Assembly (NCBI GenBank): GCA_042216675.1
Contig: JBDGTS010000024.1
Coordinates: 1-19,323 of the forward strand
Source of the DNA: Halobacteriaceae archaeon
GTDB taxonomy: Archaea > Halobacteriota > Halobacteria > Halobacteriales > Halobacteriaceae
Direction: 5' to 3'
Length of the DNA: 19,323 nucleotides
The notes under the pieces are model-generated. The model was not told where the DNA came from. It saw nothing but the letters and a program-made list of their open reading frames with translations, and searched no databases. The position numbers were made by a program, and so were the translations under genes. Shown piece after piece: positions 4,967 through 14,460 of this stretch; within the stretch, counting starts at the first letter, position 1, and every line of letters starts with the position of its first letter.

Positions 4967-5545
4967 ATGGATTACGACCTCGCCATCGAGGGCGCGCCGG
5001 CCTCGGTGCCCGGCGGCACGGCCATCCTTCTCCTGCACGCCAGCACGGGCGAGACGGACCGCATCGACACCGACTTCCTGAAACTCGACACCGACCGCTT
5101 CCTCGTCGTCTCCACCCGAACGACCGCCCGCGAGGTGAAACAGAAACTCGACTACTACGACGTGGACGCGGACCGCGCCGAGATTCTGGACACGCTGAGC
5201 GTCGAACGCGGCCTCTCGCGGCGCCGCGCCGACGACATCCACTACGCCTCCGCGCCGGAGGACGTCGAGGGCATCCTCTCGAAGACGGAGGCGTTCCTCG
5301 ACGACCACGACGGGAAGCGACGGGTCAGTTTCGACTCCATCACCGAACTCGCCTACTACGCCGACGAGGACAGAGCGCTCGACGCGCTCGAACGGATGGC
5401 GGCCCTGCTGGACGCGTACGACGCCGTCGGCCTGTTTCACGTGGACCGGGAAGTCCACGACGAGGACACCATCGCGGCGTTCCGGAGTCGCTGTGACGCC
5501 GTCGTCGAACTCGGCGCCGACGGCGACGTGACCTGCTCGTTCTAG
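4967..5545 (+). CDS. Conserved haloarchaeal protein with a degenerate KaiC/RecA-like fold
   Basis: GGTAILLL followed by a degenerate P-loop (HASTGETD), Walker B-like RVSFDSITEL and C-terminal CDAVVEL. TATAAG at 4937-4942. Confidence 0.75.
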   Translation: MDYDLAIEGAPASVPGGTAILLLHASTGETDRIDTDFLKLDTDRFLVVSTRTTAREVKQKLDYYDVDADRAEILDTLSVERGLSRRRADDIHYASAPEDVEGILSKTEAFLDDHDGKRRVSFDSITELAYYADEDRALDALERMAALLDAYDAVGLFHVDREVHDEDTIAAFRSRCDAVVELGADGDVTCSF

Positions 5546-7935: not shown

Positions 7936-8556
7936 CTACCCGTCGTGCCACGCGTCGGGCACTTCGATGACGTACCGGCCGTTCTCCTGCAGGGCGATGA
8001 TGTACTCCTCGCGGTCGTACAGTTCCATCAGGTTGAGTTCGTACTGGCCCTTGTCGACGATGCGGATGCTCTCGAACTGGGAGTTGAGTTCCTCGCGGAG
8101 TTCGTCGATGTCGGGACGGTCCTCGTCCTCGGGTTCGATGACGTTCGCCTCGTCGGGGTCGGGCAGCGAGTCCTTGTCCACGACTTCCGAGCGGGCGTCG
8201 GCCTGTGCGCTGTCCTCGGGTGGGTCGGATGGGGAATCGTCGGTCGAGTCGACGGCGTCGCCTCGGCCGTCGGACGTCCCGGCCGGTTCGGACCGCTCCG
8301 TGGACTCCGCCGGCGCCGCGCCGGGCGACTCGGCCGGGGGCGCGTCGGCGTCGCTCCCGACGAAGTCACGGACCGTCTCGGCGGCTTTCCCGACGACGCC
8401 GCCCTCCTGCTCTGGCGGCGCAGCGTCCGTCGGTTCGTCGGGCACGCCCTCCGGGTGAAACTGAAACTTCGTGCCGCCACACTCCGGACAGCCCGATAGC
8501 ATCTCCTTGGAGCCGTCGGGGAACGTGTGGCCGCAGTTCGTACACTGGTGGGGCAC
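7936..8556 (-). CDS. oapC: Origin-associated protein OapC/ArvC, Zn-ribbon protein
   Basis: MPHQCTNCG...GCPECGGTKFQF Zn ribbon, acidic linker with EDSAQA.ARSE and C-terminal FESIRI...GQYELNL. Third gene of the operon next to oriC. Confidence 0.9.
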   Translation of the reverse strand: MPHQCTNCGHTFPDGSKEMLSGCPECGGTKFQFHPEGVPDEPTDAAPPEQEGGVVGKAAETVRDFVGSDADAPPAESPGAAPAESTERSEPAGTSDGRGDAVDSTDDSPSDPPEDSAQADARSEVVDKDSLPDPDEANVIEPEDEDRPDIDELREELNSQFESIRIVDKGQYELNLMELYDREEYIIALQENGRYVIEVPDAWHDG

Positions 8557-8559
8557 GGG

Positions 8560-8943
8560 CTATCGACGCACGAGTGTGCTGATGAGGTTCTCGTCCTTGT
8601 GCAGCGTCTCGATGCGGTCGGCCGGGCCGATGACCGTCAGCTTCGTGTCCTGCTGTTTGCCCATCAGCCGGCCGATGAGTCCCTGCTCGGAACTGTTCGA
8701 GGAGGGGTAGCTCTCGATTTCGATGCCGTTGAACCCGTCGGGGTTGATTTCGGACATCGTCACCTCGATGAGTTTCGACTCCTCGTCGGGAGTGAGCCCC
8801 TGTTCGAGCACCACGATGTTGCCCTCGTGGACGCTGTCGAGGATGGTCCGGATCTTCTCCATGCTGGTGAGTCCGTCCATCCGCTCGCCGCTGATCAGGT
8901 CGATCTGGACCCCGCGGTCGTCCGGTTCAGTTGTTTCTGGCAT
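8560..8943 (-). CDS. oapB: Origin-associated protein OapB/ArvB (DUF2073)
   Basis: SMEKIR.ILD.V..GNIVVLE.GL.PDEESKLIEVTM and LTVIGPA. It lies 3 nt from both oapA and oapC. Confidence 0.9.
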   Translation of the reverse strand: MPETTEPDDRGVQIDLISGERMDGLTSMEKIRTILDSVHEGNIVVLEQGLTPDEESKLIEVTMSEINPDGFNGIEIESYPSSNSSEQGLIGRLMGKQQDTKLTVIGPADRIETLHKDENLISTLVRR

Positions 8944-8946
8944 CGT

Positions 8947-9591
8947 TCACCCGAAGTACTCCGCGATTTTCGAATACACTTCGTCCATGTTGTCGCCCTC
9001 GAGCGCCGAGAGCGGAATCGTCTCGTGCTGGGGGAAGGCGTTTTGAATCCGCTGGACGCTGCTCTCCTCGAGGTCGGTCTTGTTCGCGAGGATGAGCACC
9101 GGCAGGTCGCGGCTCTCGATGATGCCGATGAGCATCGTGTTGACCTGCGTGAACGGGTCGTTCGAACTGTCGAGAACGTAGATGACGCCGTCGACGTCCT
9201 CGCGGAGCCAGTGCATCGCCTCCGCGACACCCTCGGTGGCCTCGCGGGAGCGACGGACCGCCTCGTCCTCTTCCATGTCGTGGTCGAGGAAGTCCTCGTA
9301 GTCGACCTTGGTGGAGACGCCGGGCGTGTCCACGATGTCGATCGTCACTGTCTTGCCGTCGCGCTCGATTTCCACGTCTTCCTTTCGGCGGGCGCGGCGC
9401 GTTTCGTGTGGAATCGCGCTCTCGGGTCCGATGGCGTCTCCGGTCCAGTCCCGCGCGATGCGGTTGGCGAGGGTCGTCTTCCCGGCGTTCGGGGGGCCGT
9501 AGATGCCGATGCGCTTTGGCTCCGAGTCGTCGGCGAACAGCTTGTCCCGCACCGAGGAGATGCTGTCTCTGAGTCCTGTGAGCAGTCCCAT
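8947..9591 (-). CDS. oapA: Origin-associated small (Era-like) GTPase OapA/ArvA, 214 aa
   Basis: G1 GPPNAGKT, G2 HETRR, G3 DTPG, G4 NKTD and G5 SAL. Start trimmed to ATG 9591 (MGLLTGLRDS). Divergent from cdc6 across the origin. Confidence 0.92.
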   Translation of the reverse strand: MGLLTGLRDSISSVRDKLFADDSEPKRIGIYGPPNAGKTTLANRIARDWTGDAIGPESAIPHETRRARRKEDVEIERDGKTVTIDIVDTPGVSTKVDYEDFLDHDMEEDEAVRRSREATEGVAEAMHWLREDVDGVIYVLDSSNDPFTQVNTMLIGIIESRDLPVLILANKTDLEESSVQRIQNAFPQHETIPLSALEGDNMDEVYSKIAEYFG

Positions 9592-9621
9592 CCTGTTCCT
9601 CCCGTCTGCGTGGTGAAACGG

Positions 9622-9689
9622 CTTAAATCCACCGTCGCAGACGCTTGGAAGGAGCGTCGACGGCGTCTGACTTAAACCTATGTCAGACG
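9622..9689 (-). promoter_or_regulatory. Tandem TATA boxes of the oap operon; the distal one is enclosed by an 8-bp inverted repeat
   Basis: TTTAAG on the - strand at 9622-9627 and 9671-9676. CGTCTGAC (9664-9671) and GTCAGACG (9682-9689) form the inverted repeat. Confidence 0.6.
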
Positions 9690-9743
9690 GGGGTGCCGAC
9701 AGCCGTCGTGACGAGGTGTGGTACGCCACGACGGGGTACGGGA

Positions 9744-9772
9744 CCCCCCCACCCCTTCGTTTCGGGTGCAGA
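9744..9772 (-). repeat. ORB with G-string
   Basis: The - strand reads TCTGCACCCGAAACGAAGGGGTGGGGGGG. Confidence 0.88.
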
Positions 9773-9801
9773 GTGGAAACGGAGGGGTGGGGGAGGGAGG
9801 G
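9769..9801 (+). repeat. ORB with extended G-string pointing into the DUE
   Basis: CAGAGTGGAAACGGAGGGGTGGGGGAGGGAGGG. Confidence 0.8.
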
Positions 9802-9910
9802 TCTATAGGATAGGAAGCTATAAGTAGTAATGCCAAAAACAGCATCTGCAAACTAGCAACAACCGCTGTTTTGTTGTTGTTTCCGTCTCGCCGCCTCTAG
9901 CTAGTTGATA
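9802..9910. other. DNA unwinding element (AT-rich)
   Basis: Markedly AT-rich compared with the flanking genes (CTATAAGTAGTAATGCCAAAAAC...TGTTTTGTTGTTGTTT), located between inward-facing G-strings. Confidence 0.8.
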
Positions 9911-9954
9911 CGTCCCACCGTCTGTACTCGTCCCCACCCCACCCTTCGAGCCGT

Positions 9955-9980
9955 CTCCACCTGAAACGGAGGGGTGGGGG
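9955..9980 (+). repeat. ORB with G-string, preceded by an inverted half-site/G-string at 9931-9948
   Basis: CTCCACCTGAAACGGAGGGGTGGGGG. The - strand at 9931-9948 reads CGAAGGGTGGGGTGGGGA. Confidence 0.88.
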
Positions 9981-10104
9981 TGTCCGACTCGTGCCGGACC
10001 GGTCTCGACTCGAAACGGCCGGCGCCGACTCCTCCTCGCCCCAGCGCTATGCGCCGACCTCGATAGTCCACACATCGGTCGGGACCACGGACTCCCCCGT
10101 CGTT

Positions 10105-10146
10105 CGAAACCTTTTTGTCACTCCCGTTTCCTGTGTTTCACCTGCA
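10105..10146 (+). promoter_or_regulatory. Putative cdc6 promoter (BRE/TATA) with an inverted mini-ORB over the predicted start site
   Basis: CGAAACCTTTTTG at 10105-10117. The - strand at 10130-10146 reads TGCAGGTGAAACACAGG. Confidence 0.55.
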
Positions 10147-10230
10147 TCAACTGGAGCGGGGATAACCCCGAACCCCTGCGTTCGTGCTTCTCTCGCTCGA
10201 ACGTGGGTGTTTCGGGGACGCGTTCGCTCC

Positions 10231-10252
10231 CTCCACCTGAAACGAAGGGGTC
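10231..10252 (+). repeat. ORB immediately upstream of cdc6
   Basis: CTCCACCTGAAACGAAGGGGTC, 13 nt before the ATG at 10266. Confidence 0.88.
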
Positions 10253-10265
10253 ATCAATCGGCATC

Positions 10266-11741
10266 ATGGCACACGACGACCACACTTCCGACGGCGGCAA
10301 TCTCGGCTCGGAGCGGGACTTTCAGGTAGACGTCGACGACGTCCTCGAGGACGAGAACGAGGGCCTCTTCGACGACCTGTTGAGCGGCGAACCCATCTTC
10401 GACAACAAGGAGGTGCTTCGCCCGTCCTACACGCCCCACGAGTTGCCCCACCGCTCGGAACAGATCAACAGCATGGCAACGATTCTCGTGTCCGCCCTCC
10501 GCGGCGACACGCCGTCGAACATCCTCATCTACGGGAAGACGGGGACGGGGAAGACTGCGAGCGCGAAGTTCGTGAGTCAGGAACTCGAGTCGACCTCCCA
10601 GAAGTACGACGTGCCGTGTGAGGTCGAGTACATCAACTGCGAGGTGACGGACACCCAGTACCGCGTCCTCGCCCAACTCGCGAACACGTTCATCGAGCAG
10701 AACCGCACGCACGCCGAGGCCCGCATCGACGAACTCGAAACGCTCCGCGCGGACGCACGCGACGACCCGTCAGTTCTCGCGGACACGGAGTTCGACTCCG
10801 CGGACGCCGTCGGTGACCGCGTGCACGAACTCACCGAGGAGCGCGAAGCGATGGAGGACGTGCCGATGACCGGGTGGCCAACCGACCGCGTGTACGAGGC
10901 GTTCTTCGACGCCGTCGACTACCTCGAACGCGTCGCGGTCATCATGCTCGACGAAATCGACAAACTCGTCGAGAAGAGCGGCGACGACACCCTCTACAAC
11001 CTCTCGCGGATGAACTCCGAACTCGACAACTCTCGGGTCTCCATCATCGGCATCTCGAACGACCTGAAGTTCACCGACTTCCTCGACCCGCGGGTCAAGT
11101 CGAGCCTCGGCGAGGAGGAAATCGTCTTCCCGCCGTACGACGCGAATCAACTCCGCGACATCCTCCAGCACCGTGCGGAGACGGCGTTCAAGGCCGACGC
11201 GCTCTCCGACGACGTGATCCCGCTCTGTGCGGCCTTCGCCGCGCAAGAACACGGCGACGCCCGCCGCGCCCTCGACCTCCTGCGCACCGCCGGCGAACTC
11301 GCCGAACGCGACCAGACGGACGAAGTCGAGGAGGAACACGTCCGGCAGGCACAGGACAAGATCGAACTCGACCGCGTCGTCGAAGTCGTGCGCACGCTCC
11401 CCACGCAGTCGAAACTCGTCCTCTACGCCATCATCCTCCTCGAACGCAACGGCGTCCACAACATCAACACCGGCGAGGTGTTCAACATCTACAAGCGCCT
11501 CTGCGAGGAAATCGACGCCGACGTACTCACCCAGCGACGGGTCACGGACCTCATCTCCGAACTCGATATGCTCGGCATCGTGAACGCCGTCGTCGTCTCG
11601 AAGGGCCGCTACGGCAGAACGAAGGAAATCAGCCTCTCCGTGCCACGCGAAGAGACTGAGACGGTTCTGCTCACGGACTCGCGACTCAGCGAGGTCGAGG
11701 ACGTCCAACCGTTCGTACAGGCCCGCTTCGACGAGGACTAG
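10266..11741 (+). CDS. cdc6: Orc1/Cdc6 replication initiator (oriC1-associated type), 491 aa
   Basis: IF.NKEVLRPSYTP..LPHR, Walker A GKTGTGKT, Walker B IMLDEID, RVKSSL, HGDARRALDLLR and a winged helix (ISELDMLGIV...GRYGRT). Start trimmed to ATG 10266. Confidence 0.97.
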   Translation: MAHDDHTSDGGNLGSERDFQVDVDDVLEDENEGLFDDLLSGEPIFDNKEVLRPSYTPHELPHRSEQINSMATILVSALRGDTPSNILIYGKTGTGKTASAKFVSQELESTSQKYDVPCEVEYINCEVTDTQYRVLAQLANTFIEQNRTHAEARIDELETLRADARDDPSVLADTEFDSADAVGDRVHELTEEREAMEDVPMTGWPTDRVYEAFFDAVDYLERVAVIMLDEIDKLVEKSGDDTLYNLSRMNSELDNSRVSIIGISNDLKFTDFLDPRVKSSLGEEEIVFPPYDANQLRDILQHRAETAFKADALSDDVIPLCAAFAAQEHGDARRALDLLRTAGELAERDQTDEVEEEHVRQAQDKIELDRVVEVVRTLPTQSKLVLYAIILLERNGVHNINTGEVFNIYKRLCEEIDADVLTQRRVTDLISELDMLGIVNAVVVSKGRYGRTKEISLSVPREETETVLLTDSRLSEVEDVQPFVQARFDED

Positions 11742-12508
11742 CGCGTCGCCGCCACGGCCCCGGCGGCCAGCGCACCCGTCCCCGCCTTCGCGAGGCTCAG
11801 ACTCGACACCAACAGCCGCACGTGGCCGAGATACGGGATGCGGACCATCGCCCGCCCGCGAATCCACGACGGCCGCACGACGGGCGCGATGCCCTGCACT
11901 TGATCGTACCGGGCGTTGTTGTCGCCCTTCGTGATGAAGCCGTCGTGGGGCGCCGGACACGTCGAGAGGTCGCCACACTGCCTCCCGCCGAGGTAGTTCG
12001 GGTTCGCGTCCTGCACCCAGTTCTCCCCGTCCTCGACCCACATTCGGGCGCGGTGGATGATTGGTGAGCCGCCGCGTGCGGGCGGCATGAACACAAACAC
12101 GTCGCCGTAGTCGCCGAACTGCTTGTAGCCCGACTCCGTCGCGACCTGATAGGGGACGACGCCGGTACCGGCGACGGCGCTCCCGCCGTTGTACCGGTGT
12201 TCCTCGACCACGAACACGAGGTCGCCACGGTGCATGTTCGGCTCCATACTCCCGCTCTCGACGGCGACCATCGGGGGCCAGACCCCGCTGATGGTGAACA
12301 AGAGCAGTCCGATAACCGCCACGGCCGCGGCGCTCTTCACGAGTTCGCGGCCGAAGACCACCCACTCGTCGTCGGTGTGCCAGAGCCATCTGAGCGCGGG
12401 CCCGATCCCGTCTCGTGGCCTCGGTGGTCCGTCGTCGGATGCCACGTCGGGGCCGTCGCGGACCTCCGTCTCGGCCGCGGTGGGCCCCTCGTGGTCGCCG
12501 TCCGTCAT
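11738..12508 (-). CDS. sec11: Signal peptidase I, S26 family (Sec11-like)
   Basis: TM followed by VESGSMEP (catalytic Ser), GDLV, IIHR, TKGDNN and IPYLG. Confidence 0.92.
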   Translation of the reverse strand: MTDGDHEGPTAAETEVRDGPDVASDDGPPRPRDGIGPALRWLWHTDDEWVVFGRELVKSAAAVAVIGLLLFTISGVWPPMVAVESGSMEPNMHRGDLVFVVEEHRYNGGSAVAGTGVVPYQVATESGYKQFGDYGDVFVFMPPARGGSPIIHRARMWVEDGENWVQDANPNYLGGRQCGDLSTCPAPHDGFITKGDNNARYDQVQGIAPVVRPSWIRGRAMVRIPYLGHVRLLVSSLSLAKAGTGALAAGAVAATR

Positions 12509-12592
12509 CGCCCCCCACTTCCCGTGTCGGCCGCATCAACCTTCTGGGTCGGTCCGCCACACTTTTGCTCGCGCTTCCCCTCTCAGCGTCTT

Positions 12593-14080
12593 GTGCCGAG
12601 CGAACGCGCGGTCGGCGTCGTCCGCAAACTCGCGAGCCACGGCTACAACGCCGAACGCGAGGCCGTGACGCTCCTCGCGGGCGCCGAGGACACCGTCGCC
12701 GCAATCGAGCGAACGCTCGACGGCGTGCCCGACGACGCCCTCACCGTCCGCGCCGACCACGTTCGGGACGCGCTCGATGCCACCGCTTCAACTCCACCCG
12801 AAGTCGTGAACGAATCGGACGAATCCGAAGGGGAAATGACCGCATCTGCACCTGAAACCAAGGGGGTAGACGGCGAGCGGTCCGTCGAGGTGGCTGGCGA
12901 CGTGACCGGACAGTCCACCGGGACCGGCGCCTATTCGGATTTCGTGACGCTGTTCCGCGACCGCTACGATAGTCTCGCCGGCTTCCTCCGCGGGCGCGTC
13001 AACCACCGACCCACCGACGCACTCGAAAAGATGGCCGGCGGCGACGAGGCGGCGCTCGTCGGGATGGTGGACGACGTGCGCTCGACGGCGAACGGCCACT
13101 GGATTCTCGACTTGGAGGACACCAACGGCACCTTCCCTGTCCTCGTGATGAAAGACCGCCCCATCGCGGACCTCGTCGGAGAAATCCTGTTAGACGAGGT
13201 CATCGCCGTCGAGGGAACGCTCTCCGACGACGGCTCTATCGTCTTCGTCGACGACGTCCACTTCCCCGACATCCCCCGGACCCACAACCCCTCGACGGCG
13301 GACCGTCACGTGCAGGCCGCCCTCGTCAGCGACGTACACGTCGGCAGTCAGGAGTTCGCCGCCGACGCGTGGGAGGCGTTCGCGGAGTGGCTCCACACCG
13401 AGGAGGCTGAGGCCGTCGAGTATCTGCTCATCGCTGGCGACATGGTGGAGGGTGTCGGCGTCTACCCCGACCAAGACGACGAACTCGACATCGTGGACAT
13501 CTACGATCAGTACCGGGCGTTCTCGGAGCGTCTGAAGGCCGTGCCCGCGGACCTCGAAATCGTGATGATTCCGGGCAACCACGACGCGGTTCGCCTCGCC
13601 GAACCCCAACCCGCGTTCGACGAGGAACTCCGGGACATCATGAGCGCCCACGACGCCCGCATCGTCGGCAACCCTTCGACTGTCTCCATCGAGGGCGTCT
13701 CCGTCCTGATGTACCACGGGATGTCCCTCGACGAGGTCATCGCCGAGGTGCCAGACGAGAAAGGGACCTACGACGACCCGCACCTCGCGATGCAACTGCT
13801 CCTCAAGAAGCGCCACGTCGCGCCCCAGTACGGCGGCGGGAACCGCATCGCCCCCGAGAAGGAGGACTACCTCGTCATCGACGAGGTGCCCGACGTGTTC
13901 CACGCGGGCCACGTCCACAAACTCGGCTGGGGCCAGTACCACGACGTCCTCGCCGTCAACACCGGCTGCTGGCAGCGACAGACGGACTTCCAGCGCCGCA
14001 ACAACATCGACCCCGACTGGGGGTTCGCGCCCATCCTCGATTTGGACACGCTCGATCTGACCGTCAGGAAGTTCCGCTAA
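12593..14080 (+). CDS. polD1: DNA polymerase D small subunit DP1 (3'-5' exonuclease), ~495 aa
   Basis: GYNAEREAV N-terminus, OB fold (FRDRY...GMV.DVRST..GH) and calcineurin-like motifs SDVHVGS, GDMVEG, GNHD, YHG and HAGHVH. GTG start at 12593, ~26 nt after CTTTTG. Confidence 0.96.
   Translation: MPSERAVGVVRKLASHGYNAEREAVTLLAGAEDTVAAIERTLDGVPDDALTVRADHVRDALDATASTPPEVVNESDESEGEMTASAPETKGVDGERSVEVAGDVTGQSTGTGAYSDFVTLFRDRYDSLAGFLRGRVNHRPTDALEKMAGGDEAALVGMVDDVRSTANGHWILDLEDTNGTFPVLVMKDRPIADLVGEILLDEVIAVEGTLSDDGSIVFVDDVHFPDIPRTHNPSTADRHVQAALVSDVHVGSQEFAADAWEAFAEWLHTEEAEAVEYLLIAGDMVEGVGVYPDQDDELDIVDIYDQYRAFSERLKAVPADLEIVMIPGNHDAVRLAEPQPAFDEELRDIMSAHDARIVGNPSTVSIEGVSVLMYHGMSLDEVIAEVPDEKGTYDDPHLAMQLLLKKRHVAPQYGGGNRIAPEKEDYLVIDEVPDVFHAGHVHKLGWGQYHDVLAVNTGCWQRQTDFQRRNNIDPDWGFAPILDLDTLDLTVRKFR
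12845..12867 (+). repeat. ORB-like element inside the polD1 coding sequence
   Basis: TCTGCACCTGAAACCAAGGGGGT, compared with origin ORBs TCTGCACCCGAAACGAAGGGGTG and CTCCACCTGAAACGAAGGGGTC. Confidence 0.75.
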
Positions 14081-14460
14081 GCCGGGTCCAGTCGAAACCG
14101 ACGGGTCCGCGTTCCCTCGAACTGCGGGCCGGCGCCGGCGTCCTCGAACCCCTCGTCGGCCGCCACGTCGGCGGCGGGGTCCCCCGCCGGCACCACCAAC
14201 TCGACGGCCATTCCTTCTCGTTTGGCGAACCGAATCGGCTCCGCCAGCAGACCCGGCAGCACGTCCGGGTCACCGGAGAGACGGGTGACGTGAACCACGT
14301 CGGGGCGGGCATCGAAGGCGACGACGCCCACCACCTCGTCCTCGTGGACGGCGACCCGCACCGACCGGTCGTGAAGCAACTCCCGCGCGGCGGCGGTGGG
14401 CAACCCCGTCAGGTCGGCCATCGCCGCGGCGTCTTCCTCGACGGCGTCCCGAACGTCCAT
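14077..14460 (-). CDS. GNAT-fold-like hypothetical protein, 127 aa
   Basis: MDVRDAVEEDA..., VRVA...EVVGVVAF, VVHVTRL and GFED.G. The acetyl-CoA-binding motif is not evident. TTTATC box at ~14483-14488. Confidence 0.7.
   Translation of the reverse strand: MDVRDAVEEDAAAMADLTGLPTAAARELLHDRSVRVAVHEDEVVGVVAFDARPDVVHVTRLSGDPDVLPGLLAEPIRFAKREGMAVELVVPAGDPAADVAADEGFEDAGAGPQFEGTRTRRFRLDPA

Follow-up and report, generated by a model that had tools for sequence, protein, structure and literature searches.

The window analysed here is a stretch of 19,323 nucleotides (nt) from a Halobacteriaceae archaeon (contig JBDGTS010000024.1). It contains a replication origin (oriC) beside the initiator gene orc1/cdc6 and, farther downstream, polD1, the gene for DP1, the small exonuclease subunit of the DNA polymerase PolD. 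Within polD1, an earlier note made from the sequence of the window had pointed out a word that resembles the origin recognition boxes (ORBs) of oriC. In this work, we examine this word, here called box B, together with its counterparts in other Halobacteria, and find that it belongs to an inverted pair of ORBs conserved as DNA at one place in the polD1 coding sequence. The features of the locus are listed below, with scores in bits from the ORB matrix described in the next paragraph but one.

oriC: between the GTPase gene (8947-9729, minus strand) and orc1/cdc6 (plus strand)
9748-9771, minus strand: oriC ORB to the left of the AT-rich stretch, 34.1 bits
about 9797-9893: presumed unwinding element, an AT-rich stretch with an inverted oriC ORB on either side, read from the sequence
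9955-9978, plus strand: oriC ORB to the right of the AT-rich stretch, 35.6 bits
10231-10254, plus strand: oriC ORB, its last base 12 nt 5' of the orc1 ATG, 32.7 bits
10266-11741, plus strand: orc1/cdc6 initiator gene (Pfam Cdc6_C, Cdc6_lid and AAA; tblastn coordinates)
11738-12508, minus strand: S26 signal-peptidase-like gene between orc1 and polD1 (Pfam Peptidase_S26, a weak match of 23.9 bits)
12593-14080, plus strand: polD1, 495 amino acids with a GTG start (Pfam DNA_pol_E_B and Metallophos)
12774-12797, minus strand: decayed ORB "A", the remnant of an inverted upstream partner of box B, -8.3 bits
12792-12804, plus strand: mini-ORB-like half-site CTCCACCCGAAGT, overlapping decayed A, 12.7 bits over matrix positions 1-13
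12846-12869, plus strand: ORB "B", of oriC1 type, in frame in the polD1 linker (codons 84-91, SAPETKGV), 20.7 bits
14086-14109, plus strand: ORB-like site whose first base lies 6 nt past the polD1 stop, 13.6 bits

The AT-rich stretch of oriC has a GC content of 0.545-0.565, which is the minimum of the profile over 9000-14200. Homologues of the polD1 product carry the name DNA polymerase II small subunit. All DP1 homologues found come from Halobacteria; the closest named one is that of Natronomonas sp. EA1 (70% identity), and two metagenome proteins are 91% and 84% identical.

For scoring ORBs, we use a matrix of 24 nt that is seeded with the three oriC boxes of the window and refined only on DNA upstream of orc1. 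The training material, 1.5 kb upstream of orc1 in 62 sequences, yields 199 sites with the consensus TTCCACTTGAAACGAAGGGGTGGG, and no polD1 site is included. Half-sites are scored on matrix positions 1-13. In a Markov-1 simulation, 0.01 matches of at least 14 bits are obtained per window; in 5 Mb of simulated sequence, three matches reach 14 bits and none reaches 20 bits, so that matches as good as box B are rare against this background. For comparison, 80 loci from 80 species of Halobacteria, spread over many genera, are retrieved by a genome scan built on an alignment of 38 DP1 proteins; together with the window they form a set of 81 sequences, whose loci are denoted L001 and so on.

The 23-mer TCTGCACCTGAAACCAAGGGGGT at 12845-12867 (plus strand) is read in frame as TCT GCA CCT GAA ACC AAG GGG, that is, SAPETKG at codons 84-90 in the variable linker of DP1, and both its position and its reading agree with the earlier note. 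It is unique in the window even when three mismatches are allowed, and none of 200 shuffled sequences matches it. The ORB core pattern CACCTGAAACNRAGGGG fits box B without any mismatch, as it does two oriC boxes, and beyond it only the oriC boxes at 9752, 9958 and 10234 match with at most one mismatch; when up to three mismatches are allowed, the window contains five matches against 0.20 expected. Compared with the oriC boxes of the window itself, box B differs at 3 of 21 positions, and its start, CTGCA, is common to the oriC box at 9748. A chance match is rejected by the shuffles, by the core-pattern counts and by the simulated background. Box B has no origin setting: it is part of polD1, and about 2.6 kb separate it from the closest oriC box, which ends at 10254. 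The other observation made earlier, that codons ending in A or T are unusually dense here, also holds: the GC content at third codon positions (GC3) of polD1 is 0.869, and its A/T-ending codons crowd into codons 61-91, with the densest 12-codon windows beginning at codons 75-80. On its sequence, 12846-12869 is a genuine oriC1-type ORB that also codes for part of the variable DP1 linker.

In the alignment of 38 proteins, the DP1 linker is hypervariable in both length and sequence, and only two islands stand out as conserved, PSVS(T/G)G and P(V/P/H)ET(K/E/G)G. Solved DP1 chains found by a PDB sequence search align only from residue 116 on, which is 3' of the ORB site. At the DNA level, the second island, in the window as in the 80 loci, reads nCT CCA GTY GAA ACG RRG GGG TC; it forms a plus-strand ORB (site B). 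The first island reads gAC CCC TCY GTT TCR ACT GGA on the plus strand, which is the reverse complement of TCCAGTYGAAACRGAGGGGT and hence an ORB on the minus strand (site A). With the matrix trained on orc1-upstream DNA only, the linkers of the 81 sequences contain 149 matches of at least 14 bits. A plus-strand site of this strength is present in 79 of the 81 (the exceptions are L027 and L069), and a minus-strand site in 70 (the exceptions are L001, L021, L042, L050, L055, L060, L063, L064, L075, L080 and the window). In the 68 sequences where both boxes reach 14 bits, the start of B is offset from that of A by 60 nt in 57, 57 nt in seven, 78 nt in three and 48 nt in one. Between the two boxes lies a spacer of 36 nt that is variable in sequence and 67% GC, and the linker extends for 62-94 codons before the pair and 16-47 codons after it. 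The G-rich ends of the pair point outward, in the same way as those of the ORBs that flank the AT-rich stretch at the oriC of the window. The module consists of a reverse-complement ORB (D-P-S-V-S-T-G), a free spacer of 36 nt and a forward ORB (x-P-V-E-T-K-G-S). Judged by its word and its place, box B is the window's copy of the downstream element of this module, which almost all Halobacteria in the set carry at the same spot of polD1.

Conserved peptides in a linker could themselves be the object of selection, with PSVSTG and PVETKG acting as DP1 protein motifs and the ORB likeness arising as a by-product or by chance. The islands are indeed conserved in an otherwise hypervariable linker, and among 120 database homologues the strict peptide form is found in 104 for B and in 64 for A. 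However, the codons follow the ORB word rather than the codon usage of the genes. With polD1 and orc1 of the same sequences as background, CCA makes up 8.5% of Pro codons, GAA 34% of Glu and GGG 24.5% of Gly, and yet in box B Pro is CCA in 75/75 cases, Glu GAA in 81/81 and Gly GGG in 78/80. Box A, counted in 77 sequences after exclusion of L054 (a mis-hit of the regular expression) and three sequences without a match, has Val as GTT in 66/66, Thr as ACT in 59/60 and Gly as GGA in 65/65, although these codons account for only 6.9%, 6.5% and 8.6% of their amino acids in the background. The codon before Pro in box B ends with T in all 81 sequences while encoding seven different residues (Ser, Ala, Thr, Val, Ile, Phe and Pro), and T occupies 7.5% of third positions in the background. 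Conversely, the third positions that vary within the islands are the degenerate ORB positions, and residue substitutions are tolerated exactly there. As a control, invariant motifs elsewhere in DP1 vary freely at synonymous positions: across 44 codons the third positions have a mean entropy of 0.91 bits, and the glycine of STGTG, to take one case, is encoded by GGG in 39 sequences, GGA in 26, GGC in 8 and GGT in 8. Synonymous sites have therefore had time to randomise despite the kinship of the sequences.

The two conserved peptides, moreover, are the two strand readings of one DNA word, and the same DNA with the same peptide occurs inside orc1 (see below). Position by position, the information content of the polD1 sites follows that of their oriC counterparts, with r = 0.90 (B) and r = 0.83 (A). 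Selection at the polD1 islands acts on the DNA rather than on the protein; the codon statistics and the DP1 motif controls reject selection on the peptides, to which we leave almost no probability. The constraint at the DNA level that the earlier note had proposed from one gene is thus seen strongly, as synonymous-site conservation, in the orthologous linkers of 80 other species.

The two arms of the pair are reverse complements of each other, and could in principle form a hairpin in the mRNA or a cruciform in the DNA, the ORB likeness then being secondary. Over 21 positions, 85.7% of the cells pair, and ORB position 8 covaries between the arms (AU in 21 and GC in 19), with an agreement within the same genome of 0.70 against 0.45 when genomes are shuffled. 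The overall pairing, however, is no better than that of arms shuffled among genomes (85.2 +/- 0.4%, with a value as high as the observed one in 53 of 500 shuffles), and positions 6-7 and 14-16 are mismatched between the arms in about half of the genomes. Position 8 is the only one that covaries, and as it is a third codon position in both arms, a shared GC3 bias is a sufficient cause. In addition, the window retains B without A, its RNA fold there is ordinary (z = -0.89), and an Rfam scan of the whole window matches no family. A hairpin or cruciform is not supported, given that pairing equals that of shuffled arms and the fold is unexceptional, and we regard it as highly improbable. A second origin inside polD1 is also rejected, because the spacer is short and GC-rich: most species have the inverted ORBs there but no AT-rich unwinding element, and the window has lost one of the two arms.

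In the window, the module is reduced. Decayed A scores 1.2 bits as a half-site, and its start is offset from that of B by 72 nt instead of 60. It encodes ..ATASTP.. in place of the DPSVSTG of other species and retains GCT TCA ACT of the consensus GTT TCA ACT GGA. The ORB-like remnants that had been seen upstream of box B are both present where the earlier note placed them: the minus-strand string is this decayed inverted partner, and the plus-strand string, CTCCACCCGAAG at 12792, is the half-site of 12.7 bits, which leaves the polD1 of the window with one ORB and one half-site. The nearest relatives show a similar erosion. In the next relative, L001 (DP1 70% identical), A is lost (-16.0 bits) and B scores 16.9 bits; in L002, the two boxes score 15.2 bits (A) and 22.8 bits (B). 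These losses are what one would expect if the site of the window were a relic, with the module decaying in this lineage and the remaining box idle. Against this, B keeps the rare codons TCT GCA CCT GAA .. GGG, and SAPETKGV is retained in the proteins that are 91% and 84% identical to the DP1 of the window. Box B of L001 also keeps the flanks TCTGCA...AAGGGGGTA of the window's box while its degenerate ORB positions have changed. The lineage of the window is reduced to one box by decay of the A partner, and that box still looks constrained; we therefore consider an idle relic unlikely.

ORB-like sites also occur just past polD1. A site of at least 10 bits within 200 nt of the polD1 stop is found in 9 of the 81 sequences, and the post-stop site reaches at least 14 bits in L001, L038, L043, L045, L052, L060, L065 and L069. 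In species with such a site, polD1 is bracketed by boxes; the two Haladaptatus loci, L060 and L065, have boxes on both sides of the gene.

The position of polD1 relative to the initiator gene offers a further comparison. In 66 of the 81 sequences, including the window, orc1 lies upstream of polD1 on the same strand with a gap of 843-2834 nt, so that cdc6/orc1 is bracketed by the oriC ORBs on one side and the polD1 ORBs on the other. In ten loci (L002, L016, L026, L034, L038, L048, L060, L061, L065 and L067), among them species of Haladaptatus and Halorarius, orc1 is missing from both strands over a complete upstream flank of 5 kb; another five loci that lack an orc1 match, all with short flanks, are excluded from this count. 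All ten unlinked loci keep the pair with the 60-nt offset, at 12.9-31.3 bits for A and 19.4-32.3 bits for B, and A reaches 14 bits in nine of them (it scores 12.9 bits in L060). In six of the ten, the pair is the sole ORB of at least 10 bits in the locus. As a separate observation, L026 (Halomicrococcus gelatinilyticus) contains strong ORBs at 8015-8038 and 8323-8346 (33.7 and 37.3 bits) that lie, together with the lowest-GC stretch of the locus, about 3 kb past the start of polD1 and may represent an origin without an adjacent orc1.

This comparison bears on what the pair does. The polD1 ORBs could be the auxiliary half of a two-part oriC1, in which Orc1 bound at both sets would loop the DNA or form a higher-order complex that aids initiation. 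Such an arrangement is suggested by the bracketing of orc1 in 66 of 81 sequences, as in Thermococcales (PMC1904270), and by 70 other ORB-like matches, many of which fall between orc1 and polD1 or just past polD1. On the other hand, the ten unlinked loci keep both boxes and the 60-nt offset, six of them without any other ORB of at least 10 bits, and the autonomously replicating oriC1 library of H. volcanii centres on the orc1 intergenic region, with DP1 named only as an adjacent gene (PMC1868953). We take a two-part oriC1 to be possible, but would not expect it. The pair could also be a datA-like sink for the initiator, buffering initiation by taking up free Orc1. The boxes are high-scoring, located outside the origin and separated by no unwinding element (36 nt, 67% GC), all of which would suit a sink; however, there are only one or two such sites against three or more strong oriC boxes in the same window, and a sink needs neither a fixed offset of 60 nt nor a fixed place in one gene. 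This makes a sink very improbable. Because the pair persists without a neighbouring orc1, a cis effect on polD1 is somewhat favoured over a loop with a neighbouring origin.

The best explanation, to which we assign a probability of about 0.75, is that the pair is an in-frame ORB module of oriC1 type, located in the disordered linker of the PolD small subunit and bound by Orc1. That it is a selected ORB module which Orc1 would bind is, from its sequence and from the Pyrococcus analogy described below, very probable. Orc1, the initiator of oriC1, would bind the polD1 boxes in the way it binds those of oriC, in the normal case with two monomers placed head to head. The pair would then be a second initiator landing pad, independent of the origin, about 250 nt into polD1, and initiator occupancy would be sensed by polD1 transcription or impede it. 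A function specific to polD1, however, is doubtful. The idea that Halobacteria, and in view of the Thermococcales case perhaps the Euryarchaeota at large, have in polD1 a docking site of fixed geometry on which two Orc1 molecules sit head to head, giving an origin-independent feedback to PolD supply, is more speculative still, and we hold it to be rather unlikely. For the dual-coding site put forward in the earlier note, the ORB, its in-frame coding and the constraint on the DNA are thus upheld, while the three functions that it proposed (titration of the initiator, looping to oriC, and blocking of polD1 transcription) are putative.

Several points weigh against the preferred explanation of an Orc1-bound ORB module. 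The 81 sequences share ancestry, so that the counts overstate the number of independent events, and the rate of ORB-like sites comes from simulated sequence and from loci that all surround polD1. The boxes are weaker than those of the origin: the medians are 27.3 and 26.3 bits for the polD1 sites against 35.8 bits for the orc1-upstream sites. Box B of the window, at 20.7 bits, is below the 10th percentile of the latter (23.9 bits), that is, weaker than at least 90% of them, and ranks within the lowest ten of the 81 plus-strand values; it departs from the ORB word at position 14 (C) and in the phase of its G-run (GGGGGTA). With its A partner lost, the module in this organism may be running down. 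We also observe that the extended GGG of positions 22-24 is missing from the polD1 boxes, and that these favour CCAGTY where the oriC1 boxes favour CCAC(C/T)(C/T); this difference could reflect coding limits, weaker binding or another Orc paralogue. Four of the ten unlinked loci have other strong ORBs nearby, and the absence of orc1 within 5 kb is compatible with an origin farther off. Finally, what speaks for Orc1 occupancy of the haloarchaeal polD1 sites is likeness to the oriC boxes and the Pyrococcus precedent.

That precedent is close. In Pyrococcus abyssi, Matsunaga et al. 2007 (PMC1904270) describe a cluster of an ORB and mini-ORBs inside the dp1 gene. According to that study, Cdc6/Orc1 binds this cluster both in chromatin immunoprecipitation (ChIP) and in gel shift assays, the ChIP signal is about equal to that of oriC in both growth phases, the organisation is kept in three Pyrococcus species and T. 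kodakarensis, and the suggested role is in initiation, possibly by looping, by analogy to Bacillus subtilis. Berthon et al. 2008 (PMC2643942) mention the dp1 cluster in "the four Thermococcales" and a linkage of cdc6 and dp1 that reaches Halobacteriales, and the part of that paper available to us gives no ORBs for haloarchaeal dp1. We found no report of ORBs in haloarchaeal polD1 in the searchable portions of the literature (including PMC3528665, PMC7776575, PMC1868953, PMC3936714, PMC4010727, PMC3119063, PMC12890983 and PMC3984812), a search that left most subscription journals outside, so that a prior report is possible. ORBs inside dp1 are thus already known from Thermococcales; the pair in Halobacteria is a new addition with a cleaner anatomy.

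The two systems agree in that ORB repeats are part of the PolD small-subunit gene, on the downstream side of cdc6/orc1, and that their organisation is conserved within the taxon: in four Thermococcales there, and here with site B present in 79 of the 81 sequences, site A in 70, and an offset of 60 nt in 57 of 68. They differ in that the cluster of Thermococcales comprises one ORB of 23 bp and several mini-ORBs of 13 bp, whereas that of Halobacteria comprises two full inverted ORBs with a 36-nt spacer, is in frame in a disordered linker and persists when unlinked from orc1; binding is shown in Pyrococcus and predicted here. The comparison is made at the level of the gene, since the text of PMC1904270 does not say which part of dp1 holds the cluster. 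As a protein-only test, the peptide signature was searched among 150 DP1 representatives at 50% identity and found in only three halo-like proteins (59-68% identical to the query) and in no representative of 48% identity or less. This test is weak, since in other lineages the ORB word could differ or be read in a different frame. Six of the stray matches to the signature were inspected, and the one compared with PDB sequences, P0222, is no close relative of Thermococcales.

With the ORBs of haloarchaeal oriC1 (Norais et al. 2007, PMC1868953; Wu et al. 2012, PMC3528665), the polD1 sites share the core word TTCCA-NNN-GAAAC-NNN-GGGGT. They also share the profile of conserved and free positions (r = 0.83-0.90) and the inverted layout with outward G-rich ends. 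Unlike the oriC1 ORBs, they lie in a gene rather than in intergenic DNA and have neither an AT-rich unwinding element nor the G-run of halophiles (22-24), and their CCAGTY is closer to the general euryarchaeal consensus, as quoted in PMC1868953, than the CCAC(C/T)(C/T) of the oriC1 boxes.

More distant likenesses exist in bacteria. In Escherichia coli, datA and the control of nrdAB by DnaA are cases of an initiator acting away from the origin. The origin of B. subtilis has DnaA-box clusters on both sides of dnaA, both of which are needed for origin function (as cited in PMC1904270), and the 66 of 81 sequences studied here similarly have the initiator gene bracketed by two groups of boxes. In contrast to the DnaA system, the second group of boxes in Halobacteria belongs to a polymerase gene and is kept even where that gene is apart from the initiator gene. 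Among archaea, Sulfolobus Orc1-2 binds promoters after DNA damage (PMC12890983). The common element of datA, nrdAB and Orc1-2 is that an initiator or its paralogue binds outside the origin and either buffers initiation or controls genes of DNA metabolism. Their sites, however, are promoters or non-coding DNA, none of them an in-frame coding pair, and regulation of polD1 is here only proposed.

ORB words are found in some other coding sequences of the set. Twelve loci (Natrinema, Natronococcus, Halobiforma, Halopiger and similar) contain an ORB of 16-33 bits in a variable insert of orc1, at the following positions:

L025: 1573-1596
L029: 1711-1734
L030: 1554-1577
L042: 1633-1656
L050: 2620-2643
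L051: 2482-2505
L056: 2049-2072 (minus strand)
L059: 2707-2730
L066: 2856-2879
L072: 2400-2423
L076: 1404-1427
L078: 1221-1244

In 11 of these 12, the reading frame again gives peptides like SPVETKGS. The ORB lies within the orc1 coding sequence, and therefore the initiator gene itself carries an in-frame initiator box. In the window, the oriC box at 10231-10254, translated in the frame of an upstream open reading frame, gives PPPETKGS, the same peptide as in polD1; this box is close to the orc1 ATG, and bound Orc1 could affect the expression of its own gene. An ORB-like word of 15.6-21.9 bits that is read as AALETEGV is located in a HAD-family hydrolase gene, about 3.8 kb past the start of polD1, in eight Haloarcula loci (L007, at 8849-8872 on the minus strand, and at the same place in L009, L015, L018, L022, L023, L028 and L040). 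These are close relatives, and shared descent alone may explain the word. Around the oriC of the window, a weak fourth box at 9768-9791 (plus strand, 7.5 bits) overlaps the end of the box at 9748-9771, keeping the GAAACGGAGGGGTGGG half and having lost the TCCA half. Matches of at least 10 bits to the half-site number nine in the window against 0.71 expected; the 13-nt mini-ORB-like half-sites include 9401-9413 (minus strand, 21.4 bits), which falls within the GTPase gene beside the origin, 10004-10016 (plus strand, 17.6 bits) and 5434-5446 (minus strand, 13.6 bits).

The box of the window is therefore a local trace of a class-wide feature, and what had been a curiosity of one order becomes a widely conserved one: in a whole second class, the boxes are kept at a codon-exact place of polD1, their spacing fixed and their codons rare, also where polD1 is no longer next to the origin. 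In practice, PSVSTG and PVETKG in DP1 should not be taken as protein motifs. At least one origin-prediction study (PMC4640148) searched intergenic regions only, and a search of this kind would miss such in-gene sites. The question of what the dp1 ORBs do, posed since the Pyrococcus work of 2007, becomes testable in the tractable Haloferax and Haloarcula, whose polD1 carries the pair; synonymous recoding can erase the DNA signal while leaving the DP1 protein intact, and the unlinked loci are a natural experiment that sharpens the question. If the pair is in fact a docking site for two Orc1 molecules that feeds back to PolD supply, it would tie initiation to elongation capacity in a manner for which no archaeal example has yet been described. 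The DP1 linker would, moreover, stand as an extreme instance of a protein segment whose sequence is imposed by a DNA-binding site, with the same word present in orc1 in one order.

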